Below, piece by piece: positions 44,854 to 60,761 of a DNA stretch of 64,000 nucleotides. This DNA comes from Gammaproteobacteria bacterium (lineage in GTDB: Bacteria > Pseudomonadota > Gammaproteobacteria > Enterobacterales > Alteromonadaceae), in assembly GCA_018826295.1 (NCBI GenBank), contig JAHJZX010000040.1, forward strand, positions 79,688-143,687. The letters are read 5' to 3'. The position numbers and the translations under genes are program-made. Position 1 is the stretch's first letter. Each line of letters begins with the position of its first letter. The notes below the pieces were generated by a model. The model was given only the letters and a program-made list of their open reading frames with translations, had not been told where the DNA came from and ran no database searches.

Positions 44854-45714
44854 ATGATCCACAGCATGACCGCCTTCGCCCGTCACGAAACCAAAGCCAG
44901 CTGGGGCACTGCCCAGTGGGAGATCCGCTCGGTAAACCAACGTTACCTGGAGTCCTACTTTCGCCTGCCCGAGCAGTTTCGCGGTTTAGAAAGCCTGCTG
45001 CGCGACAAACTGCGTAACAACCTGCAGCGCGGCAAAATAGAAGTAAACCTGCGCTACCATGCTAACCAGGCCGCCGGTGAACTAACGTTAAACGAAGTAT
45101 TCGCCGAGCAATTACTCCAAAAAGCCCAGCAGTTACTGCAAAAAGCGCCGCAAGCGCAGTTAAACATTGCCGACATCCTGCGCTGGCCGGGCGTAATGGA
45201 AACACCAACTGAAGATTTAGACGCCCTGCAAGCTGAACTGCTGGCCGGTTTCGATGCCGCCCTGCAAGACTTCCTTGCCGGCCGTGGCCGCGAAGGCGAA
45301 GCCATTGAAGGCATGATCCAACAGCGTTTAACTGCCATCAGCGAACAAGTCGCCTTTGTGCGCAGCCACCTGCCACAAGCCATGCAATGGCAGCGCGACC
45401 GTATTGTTAACCGCTTAAATGAGATTAAAGCCGATTTAGACCAGAGCCGTCTGGAACAAGAAATGGCGTTTTTAGCCTCAAAATCCGACGTCGCCGAAGA
45501 GCTCGACCGCCTCGATGCCCACATTAAAGAAACCCGCCACACGCTGAAAAAAGGCGGCGCCTGCGGCCGACGGCTCGATTTTATGATGCAGGAATTTAAC
45601 CGCGAAGCGAACACCTTGTCTTCCAAAGCCATCAGCACCGAGATCACCAATGCCGCAGTAGAGCTTAAGGTGTTAATCGAACAGATGCGCGAGCAGATCC
45701 AAAACGTGGAATAA
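44854..45714 (+). CDS. yicC: YicC/YloC family endoribonuclease
   Basis: SMTAFAR, EIRSVNQRYL, GRRLDFMMQEFNREANT, EQIQNVE. Confidence 0.97.
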   Translation: MIHSMTAFARHETKASWGTAQWEIRSVNQRYLESYFRLPEQFRGLESLLRDKLRNNLQRGKIEVNLRYHANQAAGELTLNEVFAEQLLQKAQQLLQKAPQAQLNIADILRWPGVMETPTEDLDALQAELLAGFDAALQDFLAGRGREGEAIEGMIQQRLTAISEQVAFVRSHLPQAMQWQRDRIVNRLNEIKADLDQSRLEQEMAFLASKSDVAEELDRLDAHIKETRHTLKKGGACGRRLDFMMQEFNREANTLSSKAISTEITNAAVELKVLIEQMREQIQNVE

Positions 45715-45848
45715 CACAAGCCATCGCCAATCAAGCAGCAGATTCAATAAGCAGTCTGCTGCATTGATATTACATACCTGGTACTTCTGCCCCCAGCAGC
45801 GGTTTTCACCAAACACCCCATTTCTACCAACTGCGCCAAATGCCGGCT
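45692..45848 (+). repeat. 157-bp direct repeat copy 1 (last 23 nt of yicC + terminator + Fic 3' end)
   Basis: 154/157 identical to 48986-49142. Confidence 0.95.
45735..45762. terminator. Hairpin between convergent yicC and Fic genes
   Basis: GCAGCAGA...TCTGCTGC stem; duplicated within repeat copy 2. Confidence 0.6.
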
Positions 45849-46877
45849 AGCTGTCGCCGGGCTGACCTTAGCAACTTTGCCGTACTGGCTATTACTGATG
45901 CCTTCGCTGAAGTCGCCATAGAGCAGCCGGTTTAGTACTTTGACTTGCTCTTTGCTCAGTTGCGTTTGGTCTAGCCGTTGCCAAAATCGCGTTTTTTGCA
46001 GCGTTTGATCGATATCAGCCAGCGCCTGCTTTAGGCTAGCGGCTAGCGTGTCTAGAAACCAAACCAACCAAGCAGTGATATCGGTATCGCCTTTTTGGCT
46101 TTGCTCAAGAATGTCGTAGTAGCTGCTTCGCCTTTCCAGAATAGCAACCGACATGGCGTAAAAGCGGATCGACTGGTGTTCGGCCTGCGCCAGTGCCAGA
46201 TCGGTCAGCAGCCTGGCCAAACGACCATTGCCATCTTCCAGTGAATGAATAGTGATAAACCAGAAATGGGCAATGCCAGCGCGCAACAGTGGATCTAAAT
46301 TAGTGTCATCCCGCGAGCGGTTAAACCAGTCTATAAAGCAATTAAGCTCGCCTTCCAAAACTTCACGCGGTGGTGCTTCGAAATGCACTTTAGGCCGGTC
46401 TATTTTGCCTGACACAACCTGCATCGGCTCGTTACCGCGAAGGTGCCCGCCCTGCACCTTTTGCAGCAATGAACTGTCGGTCGGAAATAGCCAGGAGTGC
46501 CACTGTAATAATCGTTCCAGTGTTAATGGCTGTTGCCAATTACCGATAGCATCGGTCACCATCGCAGCAAGGCCATCAGACTGGGCTGTCGCTGCAACGC
46601 TTTGCAGTTCAGCAATACCCAGCTTACGCGCTAATGAAGAACGTACCACGCTATGGTTAAGTTGCTCTCCCTCAATGGCGCTAGAGGTAAGAATATTGGC
46701 AAGCATGGTATCCAGTGCAGCCTGCTGGTTGTTTTGCACACCCATTTTACCCAGCAGTATGCCCTGCAAAAAGTGCAGCTCACGCAACTTAGGCATCAAT
46801 GCCATATGATCAAAACGAAAGACTTGTGGTGCATCATGCTGACGGCCGGGCCAATCGGGTTGTTGCCAGATCCACAT
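45744..46877 (-). CDS. Fic family protein (DUF4172-like N-terminus, Fic domain, C-terminal HTH)
   Basis: MWIWQQPDWP start after AGGAG; Fic motif variant HSLEDGNGRLAR; TASRHL..L...G HTH. Confidence 0.9.
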   Translation of the reverse strand: MWIWQQPDWPGRQHDAPQVFRFDHMALMPKLRELHFLQGILLGKMGVQNNQQAALDTMLANILTSSAIEGEQLNHSVVRSSLARKLGIAELQSVAATAQSDGLAAMVTDAIGNWQQPLTLERLLQWHSWLFPTDSSLLQKVQGGHLRGNEPMQVVSGKIDRPKVHFEAPPREVLEGELNCFIDWFNRSRDDTNLDPLLRAGIAHFWFITIHSLEDGNGRLARLLTDLALAQAEHQSIRFYAMSVAILERRSSYYDILEQSQKGDTDITAWLVWFLDTLAASLKQALADIDQTLQKTRFWQRLDQTQLSKEQVKVLNRLLYGDFSEGISNSQYGKVAKVSPATASRHLAQLVEMGCLVKTAAGGRSTRYVISMQQTAY

Positions 46878-46896
46878 AGGCAAGGCTCCTGCTGAT

Positions 46897-46941
46897 TGAG
46901 GTGAATACATGATACAATTCACTCACATAGTGAGGTGAATA
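46897..46941. promoter_or_regulatory. Paired TGAGGTGAATA direct repeats upstream of Fic (candidate operator)
   Basis: Copies start at 46897 and 46931; same 34-nt spacing recurs at 49166/49200. Confidence 0.5.
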
Positions 46942-47140
46942 ATAAAACTAATCATCTCAAGAGACTGCAATTCAGATGTTTGTAGCCGTCTTAACAATCC
47001 TGTACGGCTATTATTACTGGCGATAAATCGCTTAAAACGAGGTGCAAACTCCTCGGTTTGCATTTTCAAATGGTAAGCCTTGGCAAGTTGATGTAAATAG
47101 CGCGATGCTTGATTTCACCCACGGTCTCAATCACGCAATA

Positions 47141-48076
47141 TCAGCCGATATGCTGCTTTGTTAGCAATTGAACAATTTTGAGGGCATCAGACCACGCGAC
47201 AGGTTGAGGGTGATAAACCAAAGGCCCGATAAATCGTTTATAGCGTTCAGCATATTTGGGTTCTTCTAACCGGGCCAGGCCAAATAATAGTTCCTTGCAA
47301 GGATCAGCTTTAAACTCTGGGTGTTGTTCGCCAAATTGAGTCACGTCAGTCTCGATCACTGCATCGATTAATTGCTTAAATTCTGCTTTATTCGCTAACT
47401 CAGTTTTAATCTGATAGAGATCGTAAGCATGGCGAATTAACTGATCGTCATCCTGCCGCTCTGAATAGCGGGTTGCAACTGCCGTTCGGCGTAGCAGCGA
47501 AACCAGTTTCTCTGCAGCGGTGGAGACAAGAGAAACACAAGCAAACCGCTCAACTTCTGGCACCTTATTTGTGACATCAGCATACAACGAACTGACCGGA
47601 TGGTAAGTGGCAGGCTGTAGTAGCTCAGACTCGGTCAGTTCTAATTGAATATGCGTCCGTAGTGCGTCACTGGAAGGGAATGCATTAGGATAATTTAGCA
47701 GTAATTGTAAAAACCGACGTTCATTTCGAACAACTGGATCCTGGCTCTGAGTAAAAAGCCCACTATCAAGTATTTGATTCGTGATATTGAGGTGGATGCG
47801 TTTTCTCAGTGTGCGTTGCGCAGAATTGCTTAACAGCTTTGTCGCAGCGTCAGGCACCAACTTTAAGTCTATGTCCTCAGACATCCGGTGTGTTTGTTTA
47901 TACACCTTAGCCAAACAGGTACCACCAGCGAATACTAGCTGATATCCCTCTGTGTCGGTGGTGCTGAGCAGGCGGAGCAGTTGTATCAGGAAGTAATCTT
48001 TTTCGACGATAGCCGGATCGGTAATATCAAGAGCATCTGCAACCTCGGCAAACATTACTGGTTCAGGCAGCATCAT
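47141..48076 (-). CDS. AbiEii/AbiGii-family nucleotidyltransferase toxin (pair 1)
   Basis: VEKD, FAGGTCL, RMSEDIDL, EKLVSLLRR; ATGA overlap with upstream gene. Confidence 0.88.
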   Translation of the reverse strand: MMLPEPVMFAEVADALDITDPAIVEKDYFLIQLLRLLSTTDTEGYQLVFAGGTCLAKVYKQTHRMSEDIDLKLVPDAATKLLSNSAQRTLRKRIHLNITNQILDSGLFTQSQDPVVRNERRFLQLLLNYPNAFPSSDALRTHIQLELTESELLQPATYHPVSSLYADVTNKVPEVERFACVSLVSTAAEKLVSLLRRTAVATRYSERQDDDQLIRHAYDLYQIKTELANKAEFKQLIDAVIETDVTQFGEQHPEFKADPCKELLFGLARLEEPKYAERYKRFIGPLVYHPQPVAWSDALKIVQLLTKQHIG

Positions 48077-48489
48077 GAACGCTGCTCGACCTGAAGCTGC
48101 ATATTGCGTAGTGATATTTTGCGATTAAAACGGCTTTTTACAATAACTTTGGCATTCACAGGAACCTGAGTGGTTTCACCTTTGTTATAACGAACCAGTT
48201 CATCTGATGGCTGCCAGGCAACACCTAACCGCTCAAGTGCTTGTTCAGATACCGCCTTAAAGCCACCTGTAGATGCCAGCATAGGCTTCCCCGTGATGCT
48301 GCTGATCCGGGCTTTAGCATATAAACCATAACCAATTTTCAGTAGCTTGCCCTCAGCCACTAACTCTCGAAGTGCCCGCCCTACCTGATCATAGCCACCC
48401 AATTGTTCAAAATCAGCGCGCAGAAAAACATCTTGCTTGGTGCGACTAATTTGCTGCTCAACCTGTTGCTTTAAACTTATCTTTGGCAC
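48073..48489 (-). CDS. AbiEi/DUF6088-like wHTH antitoxin (pair 1)
   Basis: FLRADF..LGGYDQVGRALRELV.EGKL.KIGYGLY; GTG start after GGAGG. Confidence 0.82.
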   Translation of the reverse strand: MPKISLKQQVEQQISRTKQDVFLRADFEQLGGYDQVGRALRELVAEGKLLKIGYGLYAKARISSITGKPMLASTGGFKAVSEQALERLGVAWQPSDELVRYNKGETTQVPVNAKVIVKSRFNRKISLRNMQLQVEQRS

Positions 48490-48521
48490 AAGACACCTCC
48501 GGTATTACGCTGCATCAGCTT

Positions 48522-48559
48522 AGCAAAAATACGACAAACACCCAAGCAAAAATACGACA
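48522..48559. promoter_or_regulatory. 15-bp direct repeat AGCAAAAATACGACA x2 upstream of antitoxin 1
   Basis: Perfect copies at 48522 and 48545. Confidence 0.5.
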
Positions 48560-48666
48560 CTTTACTCGGCACTCTGTAAACGATGCCCTTTGCACATAGT
48601 CAGCACCGCAATTTATAGAATAAAATCAAGCGTCAAAACAGAAAAAGTATCAGCCAGAGCGTTAAG

Positions 48667-48843
48667 ATGAAAGAAAACCCACTTGCAAAATATGGTGTTA
48701 CCAAACCTGTTCATCGGCCAAGGATCAAGCCAGTTAAGAAGCTCGATTTGGATACACCTGAGGGGAAGCTAATCGTTCTGAGCGAAGCAAAACGAATTAT
48801 GCAGATACATGAAAGCACCTTTAAACGTTTAGCATACCTGTAG
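48667..48843 (+). CDS. 58-aa Phd-like antitoxin without adjacent toxin (absent from ORF track)
   Basis: MKENPLAKYGVTKPVHRPRIKPVKKLDLDTPEGKLIVLSEAKRIMQIHESTFKRLAYL; resembles recalled Vibrio superintegron Phd (YGV..V.RPKIK..KKLDL...G..IV.SE.K..H..TF.KLA). Confidence 0.6.
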   Translation: MKENPLAKYGVTKPVHRPRIKPVKKLDLDTPEGKLIVLSEAKRIMQIHESTFKRLAYL

Positions 48844-48985
48844 TAGCAATAGATGTTTCTTTTATTTGAACGACAACTCAAGCACGCGAAAAATGGTGGG
48901 TAAAATGGCGGGTAAAAACGCAAAACAACCAACAAACAAAAACCTATATACCTGATTTAAATTAGAAATAATTTTTAAATCCACA

Positions 48986-49142
48986 AGCAGATCCAAAACG
49001 TGGAATAACACAAGCCATCGCCAATCAAGCAGCGGACTCAATAAGGAGTCTGCTGCATTGATATTACATACCTGGTACTTCTGCCCCCAGCAGCGGTTTT
49101 CACCAAACACCCCATTTCTACCAACTGCGCCAAATGCCGGCT
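48986..49142 (+). repeat. 157-bp direct repeat copy 2 (att-like duplication of yicC 3' end)
   Basis: 154/157 identical to 45692-45848; TGG(T/C)GGGTAAAA x2 lies about 70-90 bp upstream (around 48895-48918). Confidence 0.95.
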
Positions 49143-49163
49143 GGCGTTAGCCGAGCTTACCTG
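49038..49163 (-). pseudogene. Internally deleted Fic gene remnant (last ~41 codons fused to its upstream operator region)
   Basis: Encodes VSSANASRHLAQLVEMGCLVKTAAGGRSTRYVISMQQTPY*; directly followed by a diverged copy of the Fic upstream region. Confidence 0.85.
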
Positions 49164-49281
49164 GTTGAGGTGAATACGTTAGCTAATCTGCTCATTCAGT
49201 GAGGCGAATAGCAAGGCTAATCTGTACTAGCTCAGACCTCATTAAACGCACTCAGAAATTCTAAGTATCGTTCGACAGGCT

Positions 49282-50172
49282 TCACATCCCCATATCAAAC
49301 CTGGTTTTGGGCGAACCATTACTAAGTAACTCCGTGGCCATAGCACTGACCTCGGCCTGCACATAAGCCCAATACTCTGGGTTATCCACGGTACGTTCCT
49401 TGATCTGACTTGGGATAAAACGGCTCATCTCCATATTAAAATCAGCCCTTACTTCATCATCTTGTTGCAGCTTCTTGATCTGCAGCTCGAGCGCTGTTCT
49501 AAAGTCGTCTTTGTGTTTATTTCTTGCCGCTAATTTTTTTTCTACCAGTTCTTTTGATAGCGCTACGCCACGTTGTTTGATCCAGACGATATCCCAGATA
49601 TCACGCGGTTTAATTCTTCTTGCCCGATAAGCGACAGCGATAAACTTATCTGATAGCGTTTCCTGCAATGATTGCACCGGTACCAAGATCCCTTCTGTGG
49701 GTACCACGATGTTGTAATGGTTTAACAGGGGCCTTTTTTCAATGTCGAATGACGGAATGGCACAGACATCAATATGCATTTTTTGCCGGGGCAAGTCCGG
49801 ACGGTTCGCTTCTTTTACGATACTGATTTTCCAGGAGACAGTATCACCCTGATTGTCTGCTGCAGGTTTGTTTACCCAAACCTCAGTTTCATATTTGTTC
49901 TGGATATAGTTTTGAATGTCAGCTTCTAAACCATCGAAATCTGTCGGCTTAAAATTATGGCCACCGTTAAAATCGAGATCCTCTGATAAGCGGGCACTGT
50001 TGTAACACATACGCAAGGAAGTCCCGCCAATAAAGGTCAGGCTTTGCATCGCACCTTGCTTAATCAATACCGCCATAATGTCGTGGTGCAGGATCTCCTT
50101 CTCAATAACAGGGGTAATAGCGGCATAGTCTGGATTCGCTTGCACAATTTGACGAAGCTGTTGTTTTAACAT
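49282..50172 (-). CDS. AbiEii-family nucleotidyltransferase toxin (pair 2)
   Basis: EKEILH, FIGGTSLR.CY...RLSEDLDF, DKFIA, RDIWD. Confidence 0.9.
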   Translation of the reverse strand: MLKQQLRQIVQANPDYAAITPVIEKEILHHDIMAVLIKQGAMQSLTFIGGTSLRMCYNSARLSEDLDFNGGHNFKPTDFDGLEADIQNYIQNKYETEVWVNKPAADNQGDTVSWKISIVKEANRPDLPRQKMHIDVCAIPSFDIEKRPLLNHYNIVVPTEGILVPVQSLQETLSDKFIAVAYRARRIKPRDIWDIVWIKQRGVALSKELVEKKLAARNKHKDDFRTALELQIKKLQQDDEVRADFNMEMSRFIPSQIKERTVDNPEYWAYVQAEVSAMATELLSNGSPKTRFDMGM

Positions 50173-50185
50173 CCTGATCCCCTCT

Positions 50186-50713
50186 CTATTTATGCTCCAG
50201 CATATGCAGATTTCGCTGACAGTATTTCAGGTCGGTCAGCGCCTGTTCGGTATTGGCGCGATACATTTTAATGTCAGGGTCAAAATACAGATTATTGACA
50301 AGCTGCTCAACAGGCCTTTTGGTGTGGGTGAACTCAATCACGCCATAAGGCGTGGTAAAGGTGCCTGTTCTGCCTTTTGTCACCACGGTAACCCTGTCCA
50401 TTATCACTTGCGAAATCTCACCAGTATGGCTTAGCTGGCTTTCCAGACTGATATAACTCAGTTCATCGCTACGTAATTTTTTGATGATTTTATAAATTGC
50501 TGTTTCAGGCTCTGGCGGCGTTAGTACACTTTCGTATAACCCTTGGGCCACTCTCCTGAGCTGACCTTTTTTAACCCGGTCGGCCAGAAATTTCGTAAAG
50601 GCGGGTGTGTATGGCTCACCTAACATAAAAGCCAGCTCTGCAGCGCTATGAATGCCGCCGCCAGCCTTTACCGCATTGGCAAAAACCAGCAATAATTTGT
50701 CAGATTTTGACAT
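50186..50713 (-). CDS. AbiEi-family antitoxin (pair 2)
   Basis: wHTH ...LRRVAQGLY, SYISLESQLS..G.ISQ; start moved to MSKSD. Confidence 0.85.
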   Translation of the reverse strand: MSKSDKLLLVFANAVKAGGGIHSAAELAFMLGEPYTPAFTKFLADRVKKGQLRRVAQGLYESVLTPPEPETAIYKIIKKLRSDELSYISLESQLSHTGEISQVIMDRVTVVTKGRTGTFTTPYGVIEFTHTKRPVEQLVNNLYFDPDIKMYRANTEQALTDLKYCQRNLHMLEHK

Positions 50714-50921
50714 AAGGCACACAAATAACAACATTAATGGTTAGAAAGTGTAGACCTAAGCAGAAAAGTCTTCAACCTAACAATGTACAAAAAAGCACTA
50801 AAAAGGTAATAAAATGCGCACACGATAGTCAGTCCAACTCAGATAACGTGGGCAACAATCAACTAAATAGCCCTACTATTTGCCTGCAAGTACAGGGCTT
50901 TTCCTAATACAACTCAGCAAT

Positions 50922-51042
50922 TAATCACCACTATCGGTTATTTATTTAAGAAACCTTTCATTAACTGCATATATTCACCGTTATTAGTGATTATATTTGA
51001 AATTTCTCAGTACCTCTCTATAATCACCAAATGTGGTGATTA
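50922..51042. promoter_or_regulatory. Three palindromic operator-like sites upstream of hipB
   Basis: TAATCACC-N6-GGTGATTA (perfect at 51021-51042; degenerate at 50922 and 50972). Confidence 0.7.
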
Positions 51043-51065
51043 ATAGCTAAAGCAGAGCCAATATC

Positions 51066-51356
51066 ATGGCAAAAAAGGTAACGGTTTCAGATATGCCTGA
51101 TTCAGTATTTATCGATAACGCCGGAATACTGGGACAACTGATTAAAGCGAAGCGCACAGAACTCGGTATTAAATTGGCCGACTGTGCCGCACTGTGTGGC
51201 ATTGGCATTAACACCTTGTCACGTATTGAAAACGGCAACGCCAATTGCACTTTAGCCGCAGTATTCTCTGTGTTAAACGGCTTGGGCATTAAACTGACAT
51301 CGAAAGAGCTGACGTTAGCAGCGAGTACTTCCTCAGCAGGAAGGAAGTGGATTTGA
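51066..51356 (+). CDS. hipB: HipB-like XRE HTH antitoxin
   Basis: IKAKRTELGIKLADCAALCGIGINTLSRIENG; TGATG overlap with the hipA-like gene. Confidence 0.85.
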   Translation: MAKKVTVSDMPDSVFIDNAGILGQLIKAKRTELGIKLADCAALCGIGINTLSRIENGNANCTLAAVFSVLNGLGIKLTSKELTLAASTSSAGRKWI

Positions 51357-52693
51357 TGATGGCGAAAATCGACGCATACCAACTGAAAGTAACTTATGGT
51401 GATGATGTCATCGGCACCTTGGCGTTGGATAACACAACCAATTTATTAAAACTTAGCTATACACCGCAGTGGCAACAACAGGGTTTTGCCATTTCACCAC
51501 ATTTGCCCCTTAACAATCAGCATACATCTGAAGTTGCCTACAACTATCTTGATAACGCCCTACCAGAAGGTGAAGCGCGAAAGCTGCTGGCTGAAAACTT
51601 AGGTGTTTCGGAAAAAAACGTCTATTCGCAAGTGCGTGCTATTGGTAGTGATTTAGCGGGTGCCTTCGTATTTAGGCCCGTTGAAGAGGAGCATGTAGAT
51701 GAGACGCAACCCAGCTTTAGGCTACTTGAAGAAGCTGAGTTAATTGAAAGACTCAACATTAAAGAAGAGTTTGGCTTGCTGACATGGGATGACAAGCCCC
51801 GGCTCAGTGTGGCTGGCGTGCAGGACAAACTAAATGTCTTTATGGATAACGCCGGCAACCTTGGTTTTGGCGACGGCGCACTGTGCTCTACCCATATCCT
51901 GAAATTCGAAAAGAAAAACTGCCCAAACCTGGTACTAAACGAGTTCTTCTGCATGAAACTTTCAACTGCGGTTGGCTTACCCACAGCCGAGGTGGCGTTT
52001 AGGCGGTTCGGTCCTCATCCGGCGCTTATCGTTAAGCGCTTTGATCGCAAATACATGAGGGACAATAACAGAGTATTGAGACGCCACGTAATAGATGGCT
52101 GCCAAGCGCTTAACTTATCGAGAGATCATAAATATGAGCGTAACCTTGGCGATAGCAGAGACGTGAAGCATATCCGTGATGGCGCCAGTTTAGAGAAGCT
52201 ATTTGGGTTTTGTCGGAAGATGTCTTCGCCGGTAGAGAGCATACAATGGCTGATCCACTGGCAGTTGTTCAATTTAATGATCGGCAATTATGACAGTCAC
52301 GGCAAAAACGTGTCGCTGTATTTCGACGACAGCACTGCCCGCTTTACCCCAGCCTATGATTTAGTTAACGTTTCGATGTTCCCACAATTCAGGCATGTGT
52401 TAGCAATGGCGATGGGCGATGAATTTGAACCTGACTCCATACACGCCTATCAGCTGGCAGATTTTGCAGAAGCTTGTAAGATCGACAAAAAGCTATTGTC
52501 GAGACTATTAGTTGGCTTAGCAGATAAAGTGCTAAACCAGCTTTCGGATGAATTACTTATCAAAAAGCTGAAAGATGAGCCCGGCATTACTGCTGACGAC
52601 ATTCAGTATTGTCAGCTATTAGGTGACAACATAGTAGCAAGAACAACCCACTTAAAAGCGCAAGCAGCCGAGATCCCATTTATCCGGTTATAG
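51356..52693 (+). CDS. hipA: HipA-family kinase toxin with N-terminal Couple_hipA domain
   Basis: DNALPEG, SVAGVQDK, NEFFCM, RFDR, GNYDSHGKN, PAYDL. Confidence 0.92.
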   Translation: MMAKIDAYQLKVTYGDDVIGTLALDNTTNLLKLSYTPQWQQQGFAISPHLPLNNQHTSEVAYNYLDNALPEGEARKLLAENLGVSEKNVYSQVRAIGSDLAGAFVFRPVEEEHVDETQPSFRLLEEAELIERLNIKEEFGLLTWDDKPRLSVAGVQDKLNVFMDNAGNLGFGDGALCSTHILKFEKKNCPNLVLNEFFCMKLSTAVGLPTAEVAFRRFGPHPALIVKRFDRKYMRDNNRVLRRHVIDGCQALNLSRDHKYERNLGDSRDVKHIRDGASLEKLFGFCRKMSSPVESIQWLIHWQLFNLMIGNYDSHGKNVSLYFDDSTARFTPAYDLVNVSMFPQFRHVLAMAMGDEFEPDSIHAYQLADFAEACKIDKKLLSRLLVGLADKVLNQLSDELLIKKLKDEPGITADDIQYCQLLGDNIVARTTHLKAQAAEIPFIRL

Positions 52694-52916
52694 CTACATA
52701 CTTTACAGCGGCACTGGCTAAATGCCGGCTGGCAATGGTTTTTTCCGGTGTAACATCCGCCCAACTGCGCGGACCGGCCATTATGCCACTATCGACATGA
52801 GCCAGCTCTTCGGGTATTTCAGCGGTAAACAATTCATCAGACCATTTTTGCGCTCTGGCCAACAGCCAGGCTTCAAATTCTGGTGTGCCGGGTTCTGGTT
52901 TGTTCTCAGTCATCAC
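52680..52916 (-). CDS. Hypothetical 78-aa protein, third gene of the effector operon
   Basis: GTGA overlap with the DUF1240-like gene; no recognised motif. Confidence 0.5.
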   Translation of the reverse strand: MMTENKPEPGTPEFEAWLLARAQKWSDELFTAEIPEELAHVDSGIMAGPRSWADVTPEKTIASRHLASAAVKYVAITG

Positions 52917-53482
52917 TGATACCGCTGCTTGCGTTCTGCAATAAATAACTCAATCTGCGCAGTTACTTCATCGTTAGATGGCATTATGCCGGCGGCTTGC
53001 TGCTCATCAAACCAATCCAGCACTTCAACATTAACCAAATAAGACAATTCATGGCAGTATTGTGGCTGACGCACCCACACTTGTGAGGCAAACGGCGAAG
53101 GGTTCTCAAGCTTGCTGCAATGCGTAAAACCGTGCGCTGCTACATAGCCAGGCAACCAAAACCCCAACACAATGCGCACCGCAAAGGCCACGGCCAATAA
53201 CACCAGCGAAATTTTTACCCACAGCGCAAAATGCTGCTCTGGCAAATTACCGAAGTTTCGACGCAGCATTATATAAATCAACATCAGTAACATTGGCGAA
53301 GTAATTAATAGCGGTAATGCCACTAACGGTAATCTGAAATAAAAAGGTTTTGAGTCAAAATCGACTAGCAATGATAGAAGCTCCACAGCTTTGAACACCG
53401 CAACTGCAATCGCGCCAAGCATTATAAGAGACAAAAATACCGCCAGCCCTTTTTTGCGTTCGAAATGCTCGCCCTGCTGCAT
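52913..53482 (-). CDS. DUF1240-like membrane protein, probable immunity protein
   Basis: Three TMs then G-F-x-H-C...VWV...C; TAATG overlap with the upstream gene. Confidence 0.7.
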   Translation of the reverse strand: MQQGEHFERKKGLAVFLSLIMLGAIAVAVFKAVELLSLLVDFDSKPFYFRLPLVALPLLITSPMLLMLIYIMLRRNFGNLPEQHFALWVKISLVLLAVAFAVRIVLGFWLPGYVAAHGFTHCSKLENPSPFASQVWVRQPQYCHELSYLVNVEVLDWFDEQQAAGIMPSNDEVTAQIELFIAERKQRYQ

Positions 53483-54423
53483 TACTTTAAGCTCCACTTT
53501 GGAATAGCAAACAACTTATGCAGAAAAGCTAACGTGTCCTCACTCCAATGTTTGTTGATCTCACTTGCTTTGTCCTCGATTGCCGACAAGCTATTCTCAA
53601 TTTGCGTTTGTGTTTCAAATAGCATCTTTGCGATTCGCTGACCTAACTGCACGTGGTCATCAAGTAGTAAGAACACTGCACCTAAAACGAAACCTACAGC
53701 AACGACTACTACCAAACTGCCTATTGCCAAAGCAGTTGCTCCACCAATAACAGCAGATACAACAAAAGACGCAATCGCAAATGACGCGCCAGCATAAATC
53801 ACATCTGCCGCTATACCGCCCACAAAGTCATGCCAGGTTTTCTGATCGTTTAGCAGCTGATCAATGGCATGAAAGCCCACTGACAACACTATCGACAATA
53901 CAAAACCACCCTTGATGGCCTTATCAGCGCCCAATTTGCCTATACCCATTGAAATAACTTTAGGATGACTTGCCAGATAACGGCTGCCGGTCAGGTGCCG
54001 CCGCAGTGCCGCATAACCTTTAATCACAATGTACGTACGACCGTGATAATTTTTAATCTGGTATTTCGTCAAGACATTGCCGCCCCGACTCAGATCTCTT
54101 GCCAGCACAGCTAACGCTGCACTATCTAGTAAACTTGGCGCAAATGAAAGTAGACTTTTCAGCCCACCGCCTCTGCGTTGCCAAAGTGCTTTTACGCCAC
54201 TATTCTCTTGGCTAAGCGTTTCAAGCCAAGACAAAATCTGCTGTTCCGTTAGGCCTTGTTGCAGTTTTATATTTACCGCCAACTCAAAAAATTCGGTTTC
54301 ATTCATCACAAACATAGAGTGTGAATTAGCGGCTAATGCCTTGGCCAACGCTTCTCTTTGCTGGTTTTGCTGAGCCTGCTGGCGAATTTGACTGGTACGT
54401 TGAATATCGTAAAGAGTTTTCAT
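53482..54423 (-). CDS. Tme-like membrane-disrupting antibacterial effector
   Basis: YIVIKGYAALRRHLTGSRYLASHPKVISMGIG core followed by Gly/Ala-rich TM helices; upstream of DUF1240-like gene. Confidence 0.65.
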   Translation of the reverse strand: MKTLYDIQRTSQIRQQAQQNQQREALAKALAANSHSMFVMNETEFFELAVNIKLQQGLTEQQILSWLETLSQENSGVKALWQRRGGGLKSLLSFAPSLLDSAALAVLARDLSRGGNVLTKYQIKNYHGRTYIVIKGYAALRRHLTGSRYLASHPKVISMGIGKLGADKAIKGGFVLSIVLSVGFHAIDQLLNDQKTWHDFVGGIAADVIYAGASFAIASFVVSAVIGGATALAIGSLVVVVAVGFVLGAVFLLLDDHVQLGQRIAKMLFETQTQIENSLSAIEDKASEINKHWSEDTLAFLHKLFAIPKWSLK

Positions 54424-54565
54424 TATTCGGCCTCATCCATGAAAAGCAAAAATATAACACATTTTACATTTTAAGAACAATTATCAAGCAGTAATTACTA
54501 ATCTTTTAAATCAGCGGTAACAGCGGTAGTATCAAAGCGTTTATCAGGAGATATCAGCAGGAAAA

Positions 54566-55162
54566 ATGTCATCTGCAACAATAGATTATTACAACCGGCA
54601 TGCAGCGGAATACGTACAATCAACAATTAATGTAGATATGACTGCTCTGTATGCTGAGTTCCTGCCATTGATTGCCACAGGCAGCCATATTCTTGATGCT
54701 GGTTGTGGTAGCGGCCGTGACGCAGCTTATTTTAAACAACTTGGTTTTACAGTAAGCGCCTTTGATGCCAGTGGTGAGCTGGCAAAAATTGCCAGCCAGC
54801 GCCTACAGCAAACTGTCACGGTGCAGCAATTCGAGCAGTTGGACGAGTACGAACAATATGATGGTATCTGGTGCTGTGCCAGCCTGCTGCATGTTGCAAC
54901 TGATAGCTTGCCGTCGGTCTTTTTCCGCTTACAACAAGCATTAAAACCCGGTGGCGTGTTGTATATGTCTTTTAAATACGGCGACGGCGAACACGACATA
55001 AATGGCCGGCGCTTTACTGATATGAACGATGCCGAATTAAAAAAAATTCTAAAAAATGTAGCTACGTTAAGTGTTATTAAAACCTGGCTGACACAAGATC
55101 AGCGGGCCAATCGTAATCATGAAGTCTGGTTTAATGCCTTAGTGACTAAGCCAGCCAGTTAA
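54566..55162 (+). CDS. Class I SAM-dependent methyltransferase
   Basis: ILDAGCGSGRD, YDGIWCCASLLH, LKPGG. Confidence 0.9.
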   Translation: MSSATIDYYNRHAAEYVQSTINVDMTALYAEFLPLIATGSHILDAGCGSGRDAAYFKQLGFTVSAFDASGELAKIASQRLQQTVTVQQFEQLDEYEQYDGIWCCASLLHVATDSLPSVFFRLQQALKPGGVLYMSFKYGDGEHDINGRRFTDMNDAELKKILKNVATLSVIKTWLTQDQRANRNHEVWFNALVTKPAS

Positions 55163-55192
55163 CCTGACACACCCGATTCTCAATCAAAACGT

Positions 55193-56326
55193 TTACGCTA
55201 TAAAACGCTCTTGATATAGCTTTCTGTGATATTGCAGATACTTAATATTTGGCTCACGCACGGCAAGGCGCATCTGTTGTGAAATACCCAATACTTGTGG
55301 CCGTTCCAGTTGCGTAGAAATAATAATCTGGCCATTATCCTCAAATGAGATAAAACCGCGGTCGAACGCTTTGTCTAAATTGGCCAGTAACAATAAACCA
55401 TTGTTAGGATCTAACCGTTCAGAATTGCTCGATGAACGCCAGGGTTTAATGTGTGACGCCACCAACATGGCAGGCATCATATAGCCTGTTACTGCACAAC
55501 CGTCCCACTGCTCAAACAACCGCTGTCTGAACTGCCCTTGCCCCACCCTTGCACTAACCAACATCGACTTCTCAGTCGTGGTTAAATCATCACTTTGCAA
55601 AATGTCATCAACATCAGTAGTAACGTCCACTTGACCAAGCTCAGCCAGAAACTCGCCGTATGACTTTAACGCGCTGCTGTACATTCTCTTTCCGCGCGTA
55701 TCCTTCTCGCGAAACTCATTAAGCTCATAAAGCGGTGTGGTAACCCGTTTGTATTCATGGAAAGAGCCAATTTGCGTCAGGTCACTATCCGTGATTTGTT
55801 CTCTCTTTGCCAGATCCGATAACACCCCCTGCACAGCGCCTAAATAACTTTTTGCTGTTCTATCTGATTTGCCAAGCCCCAATACCCAGCGAACATATAA
55901 TTCGGGTAAACGCGTCAGGTTTTGCGTCAGTGCTAAACGTAAGTCCGCGCGTACCAAGCTGCTTTTCATTAGTTCAAACAACTCAGTATCCAAATAGGCG
56001 TAGGCAATTTTTCGTTTACTAAAACCGGTGATGTCGCCCAACTCCACGCCAACTACCGGCTGAATGTGCCAAAAGCCCTCGGATATCAGGTGGTAAAACG
56101 GGTTGTCCGGTGTATCCTGATCATTGCCAGCACGCAGACGCTGAAAGTGAAGGGTAAAGCTTTGCTTTAACGCATCATTAAATTCGATCCGGTTTTCGCC
56201 AATTACACCCAGCTCAATCAAATCCATCACAGCTAACAACATGCACACCTTGTGTGGCTTGTTGTGCCCTTGCAGCCGCATGGTGTTTAAACCACGGAAC
56301 TTGTTTAGATAAAACTGAAGCGACAT
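55193..56326 (-). CDS. HNH endonuclease with SBD-like N-terminal domain (putative type IV, phosphorothioate-dependent) and a central extra domain
   Basis: PHKVCMLLAVMDL...PFYHLISEGFW; C-terminal ASHIKPW...NGLLL...D..FD.G HNH_2 pattern. Confidence 0.8.
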   Translation of the reverse strand: MSLQFYLNKFRGLNTMRLQGHNKPHKVCMLLAVMDLIELGVIGENRIEFNDALKQSFTLHFQRLRAGNDQDTPDNPFYHLISEGFWHIQPVVGVELGDITGFSKRKIAYAYLDTELFELMKSSLVRADLRLALTQNLTRLPELYVRWVLGLGKSDRTAKSYLGAVQGVLSDLAKREQITDSDLTQIGSFHEYKRVTTPLYELNEFREKDTRGKRMYSSALKSYGEFLAELGQVDVTTDVDDILQSDDLTTTEKSMLVSARVGQGQFRQRLFEQWDGCAVTGYMMPAMLVASHIKPWRSSSNSERLDPNNGLLLLANLDKAFDRGFISFEDNGQIIISTQLERPQVLGISQQMRLAVREPNIKYLQYHRKLYQERFIA

Positions 56327-56572
56327 GAATAACTACCAGATAGTAATAAACTTTTTATATTTTTAGTTTGCCAGGAGTTTTTGATAAAGCATAATTTTTT
56401 ATCTAAATAATCGGTACGATTTTGTCAAAATCCAGCCCCCTGCTTCTGTTAGAAACAATCGCACTAAATTCAGCACTAGAATAAAAAGCCACTATTTAGA
56501 CTTTCTCCCCCCCACCCCAAGTTTAATTTGTACTGGCAGTATTGAGCACGTCAACAACACAGGAGAATTGAC

Positions 56573-56728
56573 ATGACACAAACTAAAGCACCAATGACAC
56601 CAGAAGCCGCTGCTCGTATTCAAAGCGCTCAAGCAAAGCAAAACGGCGGCTCAGTAGAGAAAGGAAGTTTTACCGCCAGAGCTCAGAGTAGTGCGGCAAA
56701 AAACACATCAACTACAGGAAAAAAATAA
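56573..56728 (+). CDS. 51-aa hydrophilic small protein (absent from ORF track)
   Basis: AGGAG RBS; MTQTKAPMTPEAAARIQSAQAKQNGGSVEKGSFTARAQSSAAKNTSTTGKK. Confidence 0.75.
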   Translation: MTQTKAPMTPEAAARIQSAQAKQNGGSVEKGSFTARAQSSAAKNTSTTGKK

Positions 56729-56729
56729 T

Positions 56730-56855
56730 ATGCCAAAGCACGATGACGACAACCGCAGCCGCCAGCTTGACCCTGAGCACGACGCTTATTGGCAAAGCCG
56801 TGGGGAAGATGAACGCCCTGATGATTGGCAAGATCGTCTTGAGGATGAGCAATAA
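56730..56855 (+). CDS. 41-aa acidic small protein (absent from ORF track)
   Basis: Starts 1 nt after the previous stop, AGGA upstream; MPKHDDDNRSRQLDPEHDAYWQSRGEDERPDDWQDRLEDEQ. Confidence 0.7.
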   Translation: MPKHDDDNRSRQLDPEHDAYWQSRGEDERPDDWQDRLEDEQ

Positions 56856-56895
56856 TTGGTAGCTTTATCTGGCAATTAGTGCCAAATGCGCTGCG

Positions 56896-56921
56896 AATAG
56901 CCGGTAATTCTGCCGGCTATT
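56896..56921. terminator. Bidirectional hairpin terminator
   Basis: AATAGCCGG-N8-CCGGCTATT between convergent genes. Confidence 0.7.
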
Positions 56922-58305
56922 TCTTCAAATTTAATAACAAATGATGTTGATAGTAGGCGTCATAATGGCCAATCACATCTGAGAACACCTTAATTGCTGG
57001 CGCAGCGTTTTTCAGCTCCTTTGCTGCAGCAAGCTGCTGTGCCCAGTTTTTTCTCTTTTTATCTAAGCCAATAGCCATCTTGGACATCAAACTTAACTGC
57101 TCAGCGCTGCCAGGACAAATCTTCTCAGCCAAACTTGCCCAAAACTGCTCCAAAAGTTCACGACTGGGCACCTCTTTGCCTTTTCGCCATGCTTTTAAGG
57201 TGTTGTAACATCGATCAGCCTCTGTCTCTGCAGACGAATGTGATACATCATTGTTTAGGGGAATATATCTGGCCATTTCACGAACAGATAATTGAACGAC
57301 GTTCTTCGATATTACATCGTGTACTTCATCCAAAAACTCGCCGAAACAGGTTGTTGTTTTTGCTTCCTCATCATTTTTTTGCGAAAACCGGGTAAGCGCC
57401 CTACACAACAACCCTTTCTTACGCGTTAAATCAGATTGATCAGCTCGATAAGTTAGTACACAACCCACTTCATAGCTGGCCATCAGCTGCAGATAGAAAT
57501 CAAGATATACAAAACAATGCGCCCTAAGAAATGCAGTTATAGCCTCGTCACCAACCAAGTTGCCAGATGCATGCAAAACAAAACCCTGCTCATAGGCCTG
57601 CAATTCATCGTGAGGTACTAAAGAGTGCTTTTGCCAGTGTGGCAACATCAGTTTCACTATGGCGACAGAGTCATTTTTCGTCACTTCGCCGCTTTTGATA
57701 AGTTCGTTTATTTGACGACGCATTAAAATATCAGCATCACATCGCTGCAGTATAAAATCCATTTGAGGTTGATATTCAGATGCAAACTCAGACTGCTGAT
57801 AGGCCTTACTACAACGCATGCCACCAATAAAAGACCACCAATGTCCTGCACTGGAGAGCTCGCGGGATCCGCGCTCGAGCAATTCACGGGAAAACGCATC
57901 GCATCGGGAAGAAAAGTCAGCGAATGAAGGCCGAAGCCAATCTATAAATTTTTTTGCGGTGGGATAACCCACACCACCGTTAAACATCTCAAACCTGCTG
58001 CTTCGACCAATTGGCATTGGGCGTCCAAAACCATTTTCCAGAATGTCGAACATCTGCTTGATTGGGATGCCGAGTATGTAATCTATACTTTTTTCAATTG
58101 AAGGTAAGAAAAAGCCCTCGTTACCGAAATGGTTAAGACGGAACTTCGATTTTTCTTTACGCATGCCCTCTGAACTCGATTCAAGATCAGCGAATAAGTC
58201 CATAACTCCCGATGGATCTGCAGTGATAACTGCGCAGTCGCCAGCATCGCTATTGCCCGTTAGTTCATGTGCATGCTGTAAATTAGTTTTAGATTCTTTA
58301 TTCAA
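56917..58305 (-). CDS. Hypothetical protein with possible HTH-like segments (start uncertain)
   Basis: 462-codon ORF in an AT-rich island; YNTLKAWRKGKEVPSRELL resembles an XRE recognition helix. Confidence 0.7.
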   Translation of the reverse strand: MNKESKTNLQHAHELTGNSDAGDCAVITADPSGVMDLFADLESSSEGMRKEKSKFRLNHFGNEGFFLPSIEKSIDYILGIPIKQMFDILENGFGRPMPIGRSSRFEMFNGGVGYPTAKKFIDWLRPSFADFSSRCDAFSRELLERGSRELSSAGHWWSFIGGMRCSKAYQQSEFASEYQPQMDFILQRCDADILMRRQINELIKSGEVTKNDSVAIVKLMLPHWQKHSLVPHDELQAYEQGFVLHASGNLVGDEAITAFLRAHCFVYLDFYLQLMASYEVGCVLTYRADQSDLTRKKGLLCRALTRFSQKNDEEAKTTTCFGEFLDEVHDVISKNVVQLSVREMARYIPLNNDVSHSSAETEADRCYNTLKAWRKGKEVPSRELLEQFWASLAEKICPGSAEQLSLMSKMAIGLDKKRKNWAQQLAAAKELKNAAPAIKVFSDVIGHYDAYYQHHLLLNLKK

Positions 58306-58351
58306 TGCCAGCTTTCCTTGCCCGACTTTTCAAACATGAAAAATATTGATG

Positions 58352-59248
58352 TTAAAGCCCGACTTCACGCTCATCTACTTCCACCTTCCGCACTACCGCT
58401 TCGCGCTCCAGGATAAACAATTGGTTAATCAGCAGGAACTCGCGAATGGCATCTGCTGGGGTGGTTTCATTTTCTTTGTGGGCGCGGCTATTACGGTAAG
58501 CCATGTAAACTGCGCTAAATAGCGAGGCCCTGCCATTAGCTTCGGCTTGTGGAAGGTCAGGCCAATAAAGCGGCGCGTCTTTAGCCTGGAATGCTTGAGA
58601 AAATAACTTAGCGCCATTTTCGCCATCCAGTCCCGTTCTTTTGCGAATAGTATCTTCCAGGCGTTTGTAGCAGGTCATCAGGTTTGCATCTAAGTTGTAC
58701 TTCAAATCTATCGCTTGCTCCATAATGCGGTTATCAACGATGTAGTAAGGTATTTCTTTGGCAAACAGGCTTTTTACCAACGTATCGTCGTAAAGGCGGT
58801 GGTCATCTCTTAGTAAAATAAAATCGTAGTAGCGAATTGGATGCACCGGGAACTGAGCTTTGAGCGTGTCTAAGTCTGCTTGGGTCAGGCAGGAACTATC
58901 AACTCTTTCAATAAGGCTTTTATCAACGGCATATTCTTCAATAGCGATATTGTGGCGAATTAGAATTTGCAGCGCACTGGATAGCCCGTGCGGCCCCTCA
59001 CCACCATAACCAGATGCAAAGCCAGATTTTATCGCGATAGGGTCGCCAAATTCGGCGAACAACAAAAAGCAGTGGGTACCGCAGCCAGATTTGCTATCGA
59101 AATCGGAGAGTAAGTAGGCTTTTTCAAATTTATCGCCGGCCTGAATCGCCATGGTTAGCGCCCGTAAGCAGCGAGCAGTAATGCCAGCAGTGCCGTAATA
59201 CTCAATACCGGCTAAGTCTTTTATTTTCAACTTTTGGTCTATAAACAT
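58352..59248 (-). CDS. TIGR02391/Ymh family protein with HEPN-type RxxxxH motif
   Basis: LE..IRKRTGL..G.KL...AF, C-terminal YRNSRAH; N-terminal IAIKSGFASGYGGEGPHG domain; start moved to MFIDQ. Confidence 0.75.
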   Translation of the reverse strand: MFIDQKLKIKDLAGIEYYGTAGITARCLRALTMAIQAGDKFEKAYLLSDFDSKSGCGTHCFLLFAEFGDPIAIKSGFASGYGGEGPHGLSSALQILIRHNIAIEEYAVDKSLIERVDSSCLTQADLDTLKAQFPVHPIRYYDFILLRDDHRLYDDTLVKSLFAKEIPYYIVDNRIMEQAIDLKYNLDANLMTCYKRLEDTIRKRTGLDGENGAKLFSQAFQAKDAPLYWPDLPQAEANGRASLFSAVYMAYRNSRAHKENETTPADAIREFLLINQLFILEREAVVRKVEVDEREVGL

Positions 59249-59308
59249 ATTTATCAACTCACAGAAACTGATGCTCCGACAATGCTGCGTCGTTTTAAGG
59301 TGTTAAAT

Positions 59309-59623
59309 CTAAACGCGGCAGTAAATTAGCCATCCAAGGTTCTGCACTTTAGTACCTTGTTGCACCAGCCGTGCGTCTGTTTTTAACTGACCTAAACGCA
59401 GTAAGTCTGCAGCCGGTTCAACCGCAATAACCTGACAACCCTGCTGCGCCAGCCACAACGCATCACGGCCGCTACCAGCACCAATATCCAGCACAAGTTG
59501 TTGTTGCCCACTCTGTGGCCAATAGGCACTCCAACAGGCATGCACCTGCTCAAAGCTCAGTGCATCGTATTGGGTAGCAAATAATTCAGCGCCCTGATGG
59601 TAAATATCAACGGTTTTGCTCAT
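59309..59623 (-). pseudogene. 3'-truncated class I SAM methyltransferase
   Basis: VLDIGAGSGRDALWLAQQG, VIAVEPA motifs present; ORF ends after 104 aa, before the later MTase motifs. Confidence 0.75.
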
Positions 59624-59769
59624 GCCGTGGGCTTAGGCCTTAAAGTGGTTGGGTAGTGTTGTAGCAATAATTTATAAATCAGGCAATGCCGCGCTAATTC
59701 AGAGCGTCAAACGATGTTGATTGAATTCGCGATGATATTGCAAATTGGACTTCCCCTACAACACTAGAC

Positions 59770-59798
59770 ACTGCCTCAATTTAATAAATTGAGGCAGT
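59770..59798. terminator. Long perfect hairpin near the right island edge
   Basis: ACTGCCTCAATTT-AAT-AAATTGAGGCAGT. Confidence 0.55.
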
Positions 59799-59856
59799 CA
59801 GCAGATTATGGTGGCAAATTTGGACGACGTTAAACGGCATGCGTTTTGAGCTGCCG

Positions 59857-60204
59857 TTAACTCGCATTCTTGTAAGCTAACAACGCAACGCTGCCATCGT
59901 TTAACCATTCAATGTGCAACTGGCCGGCACTGAGTAGCAGGCGCCCTTCGCGGTTTGGCCGGATACGCTGGCGCTTGCGTTGTTCTACCAGGTTATCGAG
60001 CAGTTCTAACATGGCGCCTTTTACGCCTGACTGTTTTAGTATTTGGTTGTCGGCTTCGGCCAGGTGCCAGGCGGTAGCGGTTAACATGGGCGAATTGGCT
60101 TCGGCGACAAAGCTGATACTGCCGCTGATGTGTTGTAATAGGGGGTAGTTGTGACGCAGGGCTTCCAGGCACTGCTGCTCAAGCAGGATGACATCATTAT
60201 CCAT
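59857..60204 (-). CDS. Hypothetical protein
   Basis: 115 aa, AAGGAG RBS. Confidence 0.7.
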   Translation of the reverse strand: MDNDVILLEQQCLEALRHNYPLLQHISGSISFVAEANSPMLTATAWHLAEADNQILKQSGVKGAMLELLDNLVEQRKRQRIRPNREGRLLLSAGQLHIEWLNDGSVALLAYKNAS

Positions 60205-60338
60205 AGCTTTCTCCTTAGGCTCTGTTTCAGTGTAGCCAGATTAATGGCTAGCAACAGCTCTGAACAGTGAGAATATTTTTTATATGTACGTTAAGCATAT
60301 GGATGGCAGATTAACTTAGCGGAAAACGTTATCCGCTT

Positions 60339-60761
60339 TTACTGCAGCGCCAGCTTAAACCAGTCGAGCTGGCTTTCGGTTACCTTGCTGGCCTGGCCTA
60401 TCATATTTAGTACTGCTATAAGATCCTGATTTTCTTCGTTATCCAGTAGCTTTTTTACTCCCAGACTCCAGCGCGAGAAATCCCGTTGTGTTATCGGCTT
60501 GCGTAACAGCAGCCGCGCATTAGTGTGGCGTTTATCGCGGCAGATACTGGCATACAGTGCATCAACTATTGCCGCTTCGCCCTCCAGATACTGTAAAAAG
60601 TAATGCTCGGTAAACAATAAGGCACCGGTAATGTTACGCCGGTGATTATTGTGTTCAGCGCGCAGCTTTATTTTATTAATAGCCGCCTCATCAGTGTTAG
60701 CGCAGCGCTCACTAAGATACACCAACTGGATTTCGTCTTTGCTTATGGCCTGGCTTGTCAC
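60339..60761 (-). CDS. Stand-alone BLUF-domain protein
   Basis: LVYLS, NN...NITGALL, FLQYLEG, D.RH, F..WSL. Confidence 0.9.
   Translation of the reverse strand: MTSQAISKDEIQLVYLSERCANTDEAAINKIKLRAEHNNHRRNITGALLFTEHYFLQYLEGEAAIVDALYASICRDKRHTNARLLLRKPITQRDFSRWSLGVKKLLDNEENQDLIAVLNMIGQASKVTESQLDWFKLALQ

Follow-up and report, generated by a model that had tools for sequence, protein, structure and literature searches.

Cis-mobilisable elements (CIMEs) and their tandem accretion were reportedly described, by Pavlovic in 2004 and by Bellanger in 2011, for the ICESt1/ICESt3-related elements of Streptococcus thermophilus. The CIME model comprises three steps of accretion, in which integration is followed by decay and then by reintegration (PMC5704250). 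The 3′ end of yicC is likewise a target of genomic islands. The Shewanella islands GISpuPO1, GISspANA3 and GI21 have 21-bp att sites, with int beside attL and hipAB beside attR (PMC8978831), and yicC-targeting islands and mobilisable genomic islands (MGIs) further include MGIVflInd1 and MGIVchUSA1 (PMC8978831, PMC8409611, PMC5704250). Here, we describe the yicC locus in a 64,000-nucleotide stretch of DNA (hereafter called the "window"), which lies on a 158.7-kb contig of a bacterium of the Rheinheimera/Alishewanella group with a 4.57-Mb genome. Two small integrase-less islets with Fic and AbiE genes follow yicC in tandem, and each of them begins behind a copy of the yicC end. An earlier note, made from the sequence of the window, had named the yicC 3′ end as a known integration site of islands, which matches the published Vibrio and Shewanella elements (PMC8978831, PMC8409611, PMC5704250). 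We consider it probable that the islets are att-bounded remnants of islands that inserted site-specifically, one after another, behind yicC and then decayed, that the repeat between them was homogenised later, and that the islets are now fixed in place.

Two islets that begin at copies of the yicC end

Genes were called with the Pfam, NCBIfam and PADLOC profiles. The target gene and the two islets comprise the following features, in window positions:

44854..45714, + strand: yicC, the target gene (Pfam YicC-like_N and YicC-like_C, E about 1e-41)
45692..45848, + strand: repeat copy 1, with the core, a 20-nt spacer, a terminator-like hairpin (stem 45735-45762) and the Fic 3′ end
45693-45714, + strand: att core copy 1, attL side, the last 22 nt of yicC, GCAGATCCAAAACGTGGAATAA
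45744..46922, - strand: intact Fic, with DUF4172, Fic and a C-terminal winged helix-turn-helix; a SoFic-like defence or AMPylase candidate
47141..48076, - strand: AbiEii-1 nucleotidyltransferase toxin (Pfam AbiEii 1.6e-31; PADLOC AbiEii 2.1e-103)
48073..48489, - strand: AbiEi-1 antitoxin, DUF6088-type (PADLOC AbiEi 2.5e-51; Pfam DUF6088 weak)
48667..48843, + strand: open reading frame (ORF) of 58 aa, which accompanies the right arm across elements
48874..48986, + strand: right (P′) arm of islet 1, ending ...AATCCACAA beside the core
48986..49142, + strand: repeat copy 2, with the core, spacer, hairpin (stem 49029-49056) and Fic 3′ remnant
48987-49008, + strand: att core copy 2, at the junction of islets 1 and 2, identical to the yicC end at 22/22 positions
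49038..49222, - strand: deleted Fic, the last ~40 codons fused at about 49162/49163 to the Fic upstream region
49282..50172, - strand: AbiEii-2 toxin (Pfam AbiEii 1.7e-34; PADLOC 4.6e-102)
50186..50734, - strand: AbiEi-2 antitoxin (NCBIfam TAA_AbiEi 224.6 bits, cut-off 150; PADLOC 2.6e-61)

The intact Fic matches Pfam DUF4172 (6.9e-23) and Fic (1.1e-12) as well as PADLOC SoFic (8.6e-42), and scores 67 bits against the NCBIfam SoFic equivalog, below its 550-bit cut-off. The motifs HSLEDGNGRLAR and SSAIEG are present in the translation, as read by eye from the sequence, and the ATG at 46877 is probably the true start. At its 3′ end (45744-45770), the Fic ORF runs into the hairpin and ends ...RYVISMQQTAY, while the orthologue in Rheinheimera metallidurans (G047) ends ...RYVLTQ, the stop codon being shifted by a few codons between the two. 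AbiEi-1 and AbiEii-1 overlap by 4 nt, and in both AbiE pairs the AbiEii nucleotidyltransferase is adjoined by an AbiEi regulator, as judged by PADLOC. The composition given in the earlier note is upheld by these gene calls: att, intact Fic, AbiEii and an AbiEi-like gene make up the first module, and att, a deleted Fic with a diverged upstream region, and a different AbiEii and AbiEi make up the second, in which the deletion junction was also found.

The note had further reported a repeat of the yicC end, the hairpin and the Fic 3′ end, 3,294 bp apart and identical at 154 of 157 positions. A repeat search of the window returned it as a direct repeat of 184 nt (45685-45868 and 48979-49162; 93%, spacing 3294), and a base-by-base count of 45692-45848 against 48986-49142 confirmed 154/157 identities. 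The yicC-end part (45692-45714) is identical at 23/23 positions and the next 134 nt at 131/134, and at 45849 the identity falls from 98% to 56%, with 14/25 matches over the following 25 nt. The search also returned a second repeat, 46892-46953 against 49161-49222, at 73%, from which it is evident that in copy 2 the Fic 3′ end runs straight into the Fic upstream region. The 157-nt repeat has only two copies in the genome. Both of its hairpins (-19.5 and -24.9 kcal/mol in copies 1 and 2, with z of -5.2 and -5.9) sit 3′ of the yicC stop codon and have a terminator-like score on the yicC strand. The spacer and hairpin variant is common to the two copies in the window and was found in no other species. 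Because the identity drops so abruptly and the shared spacer variant is unique to this species, we ascribe the near-identity of the 157 nt to gene conversion, which would have acted on the left ends once these lay in tandem, that is, to homogenisation beyond a merely shared att. Read in this manner, the repeat shows that its two copies do recombine homologously. It probably represents the shared left end of two related yet distinct islets.

Empty, single and stacked yicC sites in related genomes

We compared about 40 yicC loci of the same GTDB genus (the Rheinheimera/Alishewanella/Arsukibacterium/Alkalimonas group, hereafter "congeners"), each with up to 20 kb of DNA 3′ of yicC. This comparison, which the earlier note had proposed as a check, revealed empty, single, stacked and integrase-bearing states of the site. 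In the empty sites of G004 and G021, the yicC stop codon is followed, after about 31 nt, by a homologue of the gene starting at 60339 in the window. The whole of 45715-60338 is therefore inserted DNA. Islets between two cores are present in G020, G022, G053, G024 and G012. The islet in G020 consists of Fic alone (1.47 kb) and has a right segment like window 48880-49008, that in G022 carries a deleted Fic, AbiEii-2, AbiEi-2, the right-arm segment and the core (2.1 kb), and that in G053 carries HipBA (1.9 kb). HipBA also lies directly 3′ of yicC in G007 and G049.

Tandem arrays with three cores each were found in G019, G047 and G061. The array of G047 starts with an integrase island of 20.8 kb that has the right arm and the core at its end, and continues with a 2.6-kb islet (Fic, a decayed AbiE-1, the 58-aa ORF, arm and core); integrase fragments follow the third core. 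The G047 locus holds intact, integrase-less and decaying states side by side. The fragments are two partial ORFs (75 and 120 aa) of a yicC-family integrase, at about 24.4-25.0 kb from the yicC start. In G061 (L061), the cores lie at 16, 1823 and 9178, and an identical stretch of ~45 nt of native flank comes after both the second and the third; the repeat in this locus is longer than the core and may reflect a different element type or a duplication of the flank.

The cargo varies among these units. Between Fic and the right arm, some genomes have AbiE-1, others AbiE-2 and others nothing, in line with the swapping of AbiE cargo put forward in the earlier note. Fic is internal in G019, G041 and G044, and some units lack it; it is a frequent cargo and not a defining head. 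Of the family of Fic-headed islets that the note had envisaged, the stacking at yicC of integrase-less, att-bounded units thus stands, and the role of Fic as their defining head does not. The left end, consisting of the core, spacer and hairpin, is common to the window and 10 other genomes. The G019-type integrase island (L043, 862-1120) and the HipBA islets (L026/L037, 862-900) have one left end in common, a terminator, AAAAGCCCTGT...ACAGGGCTTTTTT, directly 3′ of the core, and the G019 arm carries the variant motif GGTGGGCAG. The HipBA islets may derive from this integrase subtype.

What, then, do the elements have in common? We aligned nine of them from eight species. Each displaced core in the alignment is directly preceded by a segment of ~110 nt, AAGCA..GAAAAATGGTGGGTAAAATGGCGGGTAAAA..CAACCAACAA..CTGATTTAAA..AATTAATT..ATC(C/T)ACAA, which we call the right arm. 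Its conservation begins abruptly at AAGCA, independently of the DNA upstream, which may be the Fic 5′ region, the 58-aa ORF or the end of another AbiEii-like gene. The profile built from this alignment, searched with nhmmer, returned 15 copies in 13 congeners and exactly one copy in the window genome, at 48874-49007. The most conserved part is the pair GGTGGGTAAA / GGCGGGTAAA, with the motif TGG(T/C)GGGTAAA, which in the window occupies 48892-48917 (AATGGTGGGTAAAATGGCGGGTAAAA) and occurs once in the genome. The same motif is found between yicC and int in the integrase-bearing islands (GTGGTGGGTAAAGTGGTGGGTA, and a third copy about 45 nt on), and the GGTGGGTAAA-type pair is present in the yicC-int arm of loci L045, L046, L053, L055 and L057. 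The arm-like TGG(T/C) pair that the earlier note had seen before copy 2 is accordingly real, being kept in the 15 element copies and recurring in the integrase-side arm, and the search for other copies that it recommended showed the pair to be unique in the window genome. Since the right arm is the same in 13 genomes despite unrelated upstream cargo, the comparison suggests that it has been retained for a function. The conserved right arm, rather than Fic, is the feature that defines the family.

The 58-aa ORF is kept in 8 diverged elements, always beside the right arm, and has 32 invariant residues. It has no family match in Pfam, PHROG or NCBIfam, and its AlphaFold2 model (predicted local distance difference test score, pLDDT, 81) contains two C-terminal helices only. 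We had considered it as an excisionase or recombination directionality factor, and dropped this assignment in view of the lack of a family match and the presence of just the two C-terminal helices. The intact G047 island encodes AlpA-like and excisionase-like helix-turn-helix proteins, as judged by eye from the ORF translations.

The deleted Fic of islet 2 has lost ~1 kb internally, so that its 3′ end (about 40 codons) joins the Fic upstream region near 49162/49163. The deletion junction, ...GGCTTACC(T/G)TG followed by TTGAGGTGAATAC..., is identical in window copy 2 and in G046, G024, G022 and G061 (loci L030, L036, L044 and L061 of the junction alignment), and the same five carry an upstream-region variant unlike that of the intact Fic genes. 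As the junction is identical in five species, islet 2 did not arise by local copying of islet 1 but is an old element that has circulated separately. These data bear on the simplest account of the locus, namely that the yicC-Fic junction was duplicated locally on a single occasion and its copies then diverged, or that the repeat is an artefact of assembly. The repeat does have only two copies in the genome, and its length is about that of one sequencing read. In the four other species, however, the deletion junction and upstream variant of copy 2 lie alone beside yicC, and the right arm before copy 2 is found in 13 congeners. An assembly artefact is unlikely in particular, because the copies differ at three positions and in their flanks on both sides, within a contig of 158.7 kb, and because both types of junction recur separately in other species. 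The earlier note had named both an artefact and a one-off duplication as outcomes that would speak against its proposal; the comparative data contradict the latter, and we regard this account as a whole as highly improbable.

Next, we investigated the integrase by searching all ORFs of the fetched yicC loci with phmmer. Six congeners (G003, G009, G013, G019, G047 and G060) carry a tyrosine recombinase of 405-434 aa on the yicC side, starting about 190 nt after the yicC stop codon on the same strand and consisting of the Arm-DNA-bind_3, Phage_int_M and Phage_integrase domains. In an order-wide survey, 31/300 genomes had a homologue at E <= 1e-60. Thirty integrase loci were returned (35-98% identity, 18 genera), and all but one of them (29/30) have yicC on the same strand, 46-590 nt upstream of the integrase. 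The position of 29/30 homologues directly behind yicC indicates a yicC-specific integrase family. The adjacent tyrosine integrase that the earlier note regarded as normal for yicC islands is thus seen in the six congeners and the 29 order-wide loci, and its statement that the modules of the window lack one is also borne out: no tyrosine recombinase is present on the contig.

Probable accretion and decay, and possible mobility

How did the two islets come to lie side by side? The preferred answer is integrase-mediated insertion, and the alternative is that homologous recombination sufficed to build the tandem, the islets being immobile relics that spread together with the yicC neighbourhood. 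In that case, DNA taken up by transformation or conjugation would have been exchanged by RecA in the flanks, and a crossover of the Campbell type, or an unequal one, within the ~157 nt of shared left end would have joined islets 1 and 2. The near-identical tract of 157 nt with its abrupt end is typical of a recombination or conversion tract, the left end common to 10 other genomes offers homology for exchange, and neither an integrase-side arm in the islets nor the cognate integrase in the genome is present. On the other hand, the junction between the islets is an exact attR/attL hybrid, in which an intact conserved right arm abuts a perfect 22-nt core, and this arm is constant in 13 genomes with unrelated cargo upstream. 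Moreover, a single crossover between diverged copies gives chimeras rather than a near-identical pair, and conversion would be needed anyway. The two routes are inseparable for this one junction, but its perfect arm-core structure favours the integrase, and recombination alone seems to us an unlikely, if serious, alternative.

Several points weigh against the integrase-based history, or against mobility at present. The islets have no integrase-side arm, their left core being followed by the spacer and hairpin only. The genome search for a yicC-targeting integrase, advised in the earlier note, found no member of the family at 1e-60 in the window genome, the best match having 24-27% identity. 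Neither a recognisable core nor a right arm was found at the right end of the whole island. Finally, the divergence contrast described next draws on one core gene, yicC.

The synonymous divergence (dS) to the window is 0.40-0.73 for Fic where that of yicC is 0.77-1.69 (0.44 versus 1.55 in G019, and 0.58 versus 1.69 in G047). Fic is absent from the 20 kb behind yicC in the genomes that are closest by this gene (dS 0.50-0.58), and a close Fic is present in 6/24 congeners of our first sample. The low Fic dS relative to that of yicC and this patchy occurrence indicate that Fic is not fixed beside yicC and has moved horizontally, apparently between species and, by comparison with this one core gene, more recently than yicC diverged. 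A fixed Fic in all relatives, which the earlier note had named as evidence against its proposal, is thus not the case. Outside the clade, no Fic was found within 6 kb of yicC (homologues <=62% identity; Vibrio, Aeromonas, Pseudomonas and others). In Alkalimonas delamerensis (L089, 5009-7131), an AbiEii with 98% protein identity to AbiEii-2 is directly upstream of an intact Fic with 84% identity. The AbiE-2 cassette seems to have moved more recently than Fic, and the Alkalimonas arrangement, with an intact Fic beside AbiEii-2, suggests an origin for islet 2.

Beyond islet 2, the inserted DNA and its right flank comprise the following features:

50845..50862, no strand assigned: fusion junction of islet 2 and HipBA, from a three-way comparison with G022 (L044) and G007/G053 (L026, L037)
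50858..52699, + strand: HipBA module, hipB 51066-51356 and hipA 51347-52693 (Pfam HTH_3, HipA_C, Couple_hipA)
52700..60338, no strand assigned: rest of the low-GC island, with membrane proteins, a methyltransferase, an HNH nuclease, a Ymh/HEPN-like gene and others
60339..60761, - strand: conserved right-flank gene, BLUF-like by eye

Islet 2 meets HipBA at about 50855 without a right arm or core, and ATCA is common to both sequences at the join. Roughly 250-300 nt, including the right att of islet 2, seem to have been deleted here through this microhomology; the core search, the comparison and the arm profile all failed to find a third core or arm at this end. Just 3′ of hipA (52700-52745), about 20/22 positions of the stretch ACTGGCTAAATGCCGGCTGGC agree with ACTGCGCCAAATGCCGGCTGGC from the Fic 3′ region (49124-49145), and the stretch may be a scrap of another, nearly deleted Fic head that opened the next module. 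In G048, a truncated right arm is joined at the same point as this post-hipA stretch (about 52750). Further on, a 104-aa ORF (59309-59623, - strand) resembles the N-terminal part of a SAM methyltransferase (VLDIGAGSGRD...); it is apparently a truncated fragment, distinct from the intact methyltransferase at 54566-55162. The stretch of low GC content extends over about 46.9-60.3 kb (about 44% versus about 52%), and no tRNA genes were found in the window.

Considering these features, we propose the following history for the locus, by serial insertion and decay. The yicC 3′ end would serve as the chromosomal attachment site for islands moved by a P4-type tyrosine integrase with an arm-binding N-terminal domain. 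Every insertion would rebuild the yicC end and displace the older copy of its last 22 nt downstream, and insertions would thereby stack in tandem. Subsequently, the integrase, parts of the arms and some att copies would disappear from the stacked islands, whose decay would leave small att-bounded packages of addictive or defence genes. Islet 1 (45715-49008) may be regarded as a complete CIME-like unit, with the left core on one side, the right arm with two arm-type sites and a core on the other, and the SoFic-like Fic, AbiEii/AbiEi and the 58-aa ORF as its cargo. Islet 2 (from 49009), with the deleted Fic and the second AbiE pair, would have lost its right att upon the microhomology fusion to the HipBA islet.

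Can the islets leave the site? In lambda-type systems, a missing integrase-side arm would block autonomous attP function. As only the right arm is kept, the islets are probably unable to form a working attP alone, and as the genome has no cognate integrase, they would be immobile without a helper. Two exits are conceivable. First, an incoming integrase-bearing yicC island could recombine the att sites of an islet, either in trans or as a composite, in which the left arm of the integrase island would pair with the right arm of the islet. Second, RecA could delete the 3.3-kb unit via the 157-nt repeat. A more far-reaching idea is that the yicC end is an integron-like platform, at which single-function Fic, AbiE and HipBA cassettes, with the 22-nt core and a short conserved arm as the boundaries of each, are captured, reordered and exported by a resident yicC-family integrase island. 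We consider this improbable; if it were true, the integrase-less islets would be selected hitch-hikers that keep just the arm they need, and not mere debris.

Relation to known elements

The serial insertion and decay proposed here reveal no new mechanism, and the target site, the integrase family, the toxin-antitoxin (TA) modules near the right end and, with the CIMEs, tandem accretion have already been published. Like the published yicC islands and MGIs, the units in the window are inserted at the yicC 3′ end with a duplicated core of ~21-22 bp (22/22 in the window), and their intact relatives have the integrase on the yicC side. TA modules, including hipAB, near the right end and restriction or defence cargo are common to both. 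In addition, the candidate arm-type sites of the window are shared with integrase-bearing members, and the G047 island ends in the same right arm. The integrase of the genus is grouped with those of the named MGIs by its yicC target. The units in the window differ from these islands in having no integrase or recognised excisionase, and in their size of 1.5-3.3 kb as compared to 18-37 kb. Among the general Pfam hits of the island there are no mobilisation genes such as a relaxase, the origin of transfer (oriT) not having been searched for.

The resemblance to P4-type and CP4-57-type islands lies in the Arm-DNA-bind_3 integrase and in arm-type sites that recur to either side of the core, and the G047 island encodes AlpA-, RadC- and YfjJ-like proteins, as judged by eye from the ORF translations. 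In contrast to those islands, insertion takes place at a protein gene's end instead of a tRNA gene, and the window keeps the right-arm half only.

The CIMEs are similar in being att-flanked, in having lost the genes for integration and transfer, in their tandem arrangement at the 3′ end of a protein gene, and in sharing arms with integrase-bearing relatives. Of the attL and attR flanks of a CIME, islet 1 (45693-49008) has both, and islet 2 is without the right arm and core. The window differs in its gammaproteobacterial host, its yicC target, its defence and TA cargo and the absence of a helper from the genome, and cis-mobilisation is putative here.

The serial insertion and decay of such elements would account for the dense array of SoFic-like, AbiE and HipBA genes in a genome without a nearby mobility gene, and the locus provides a clean example of the growth and decay of a defence island at a protein-gene att site in Gammaproteobacteria. 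What is new as compared to the known systems is a clade-specific family of very small defence islets with a defined core and right arm and a natural series of states. These states (empty, single, stacked and integrase-bearing) make the model of accretion and cis-mobilisation, established for the CIMEs, testable at yicC.

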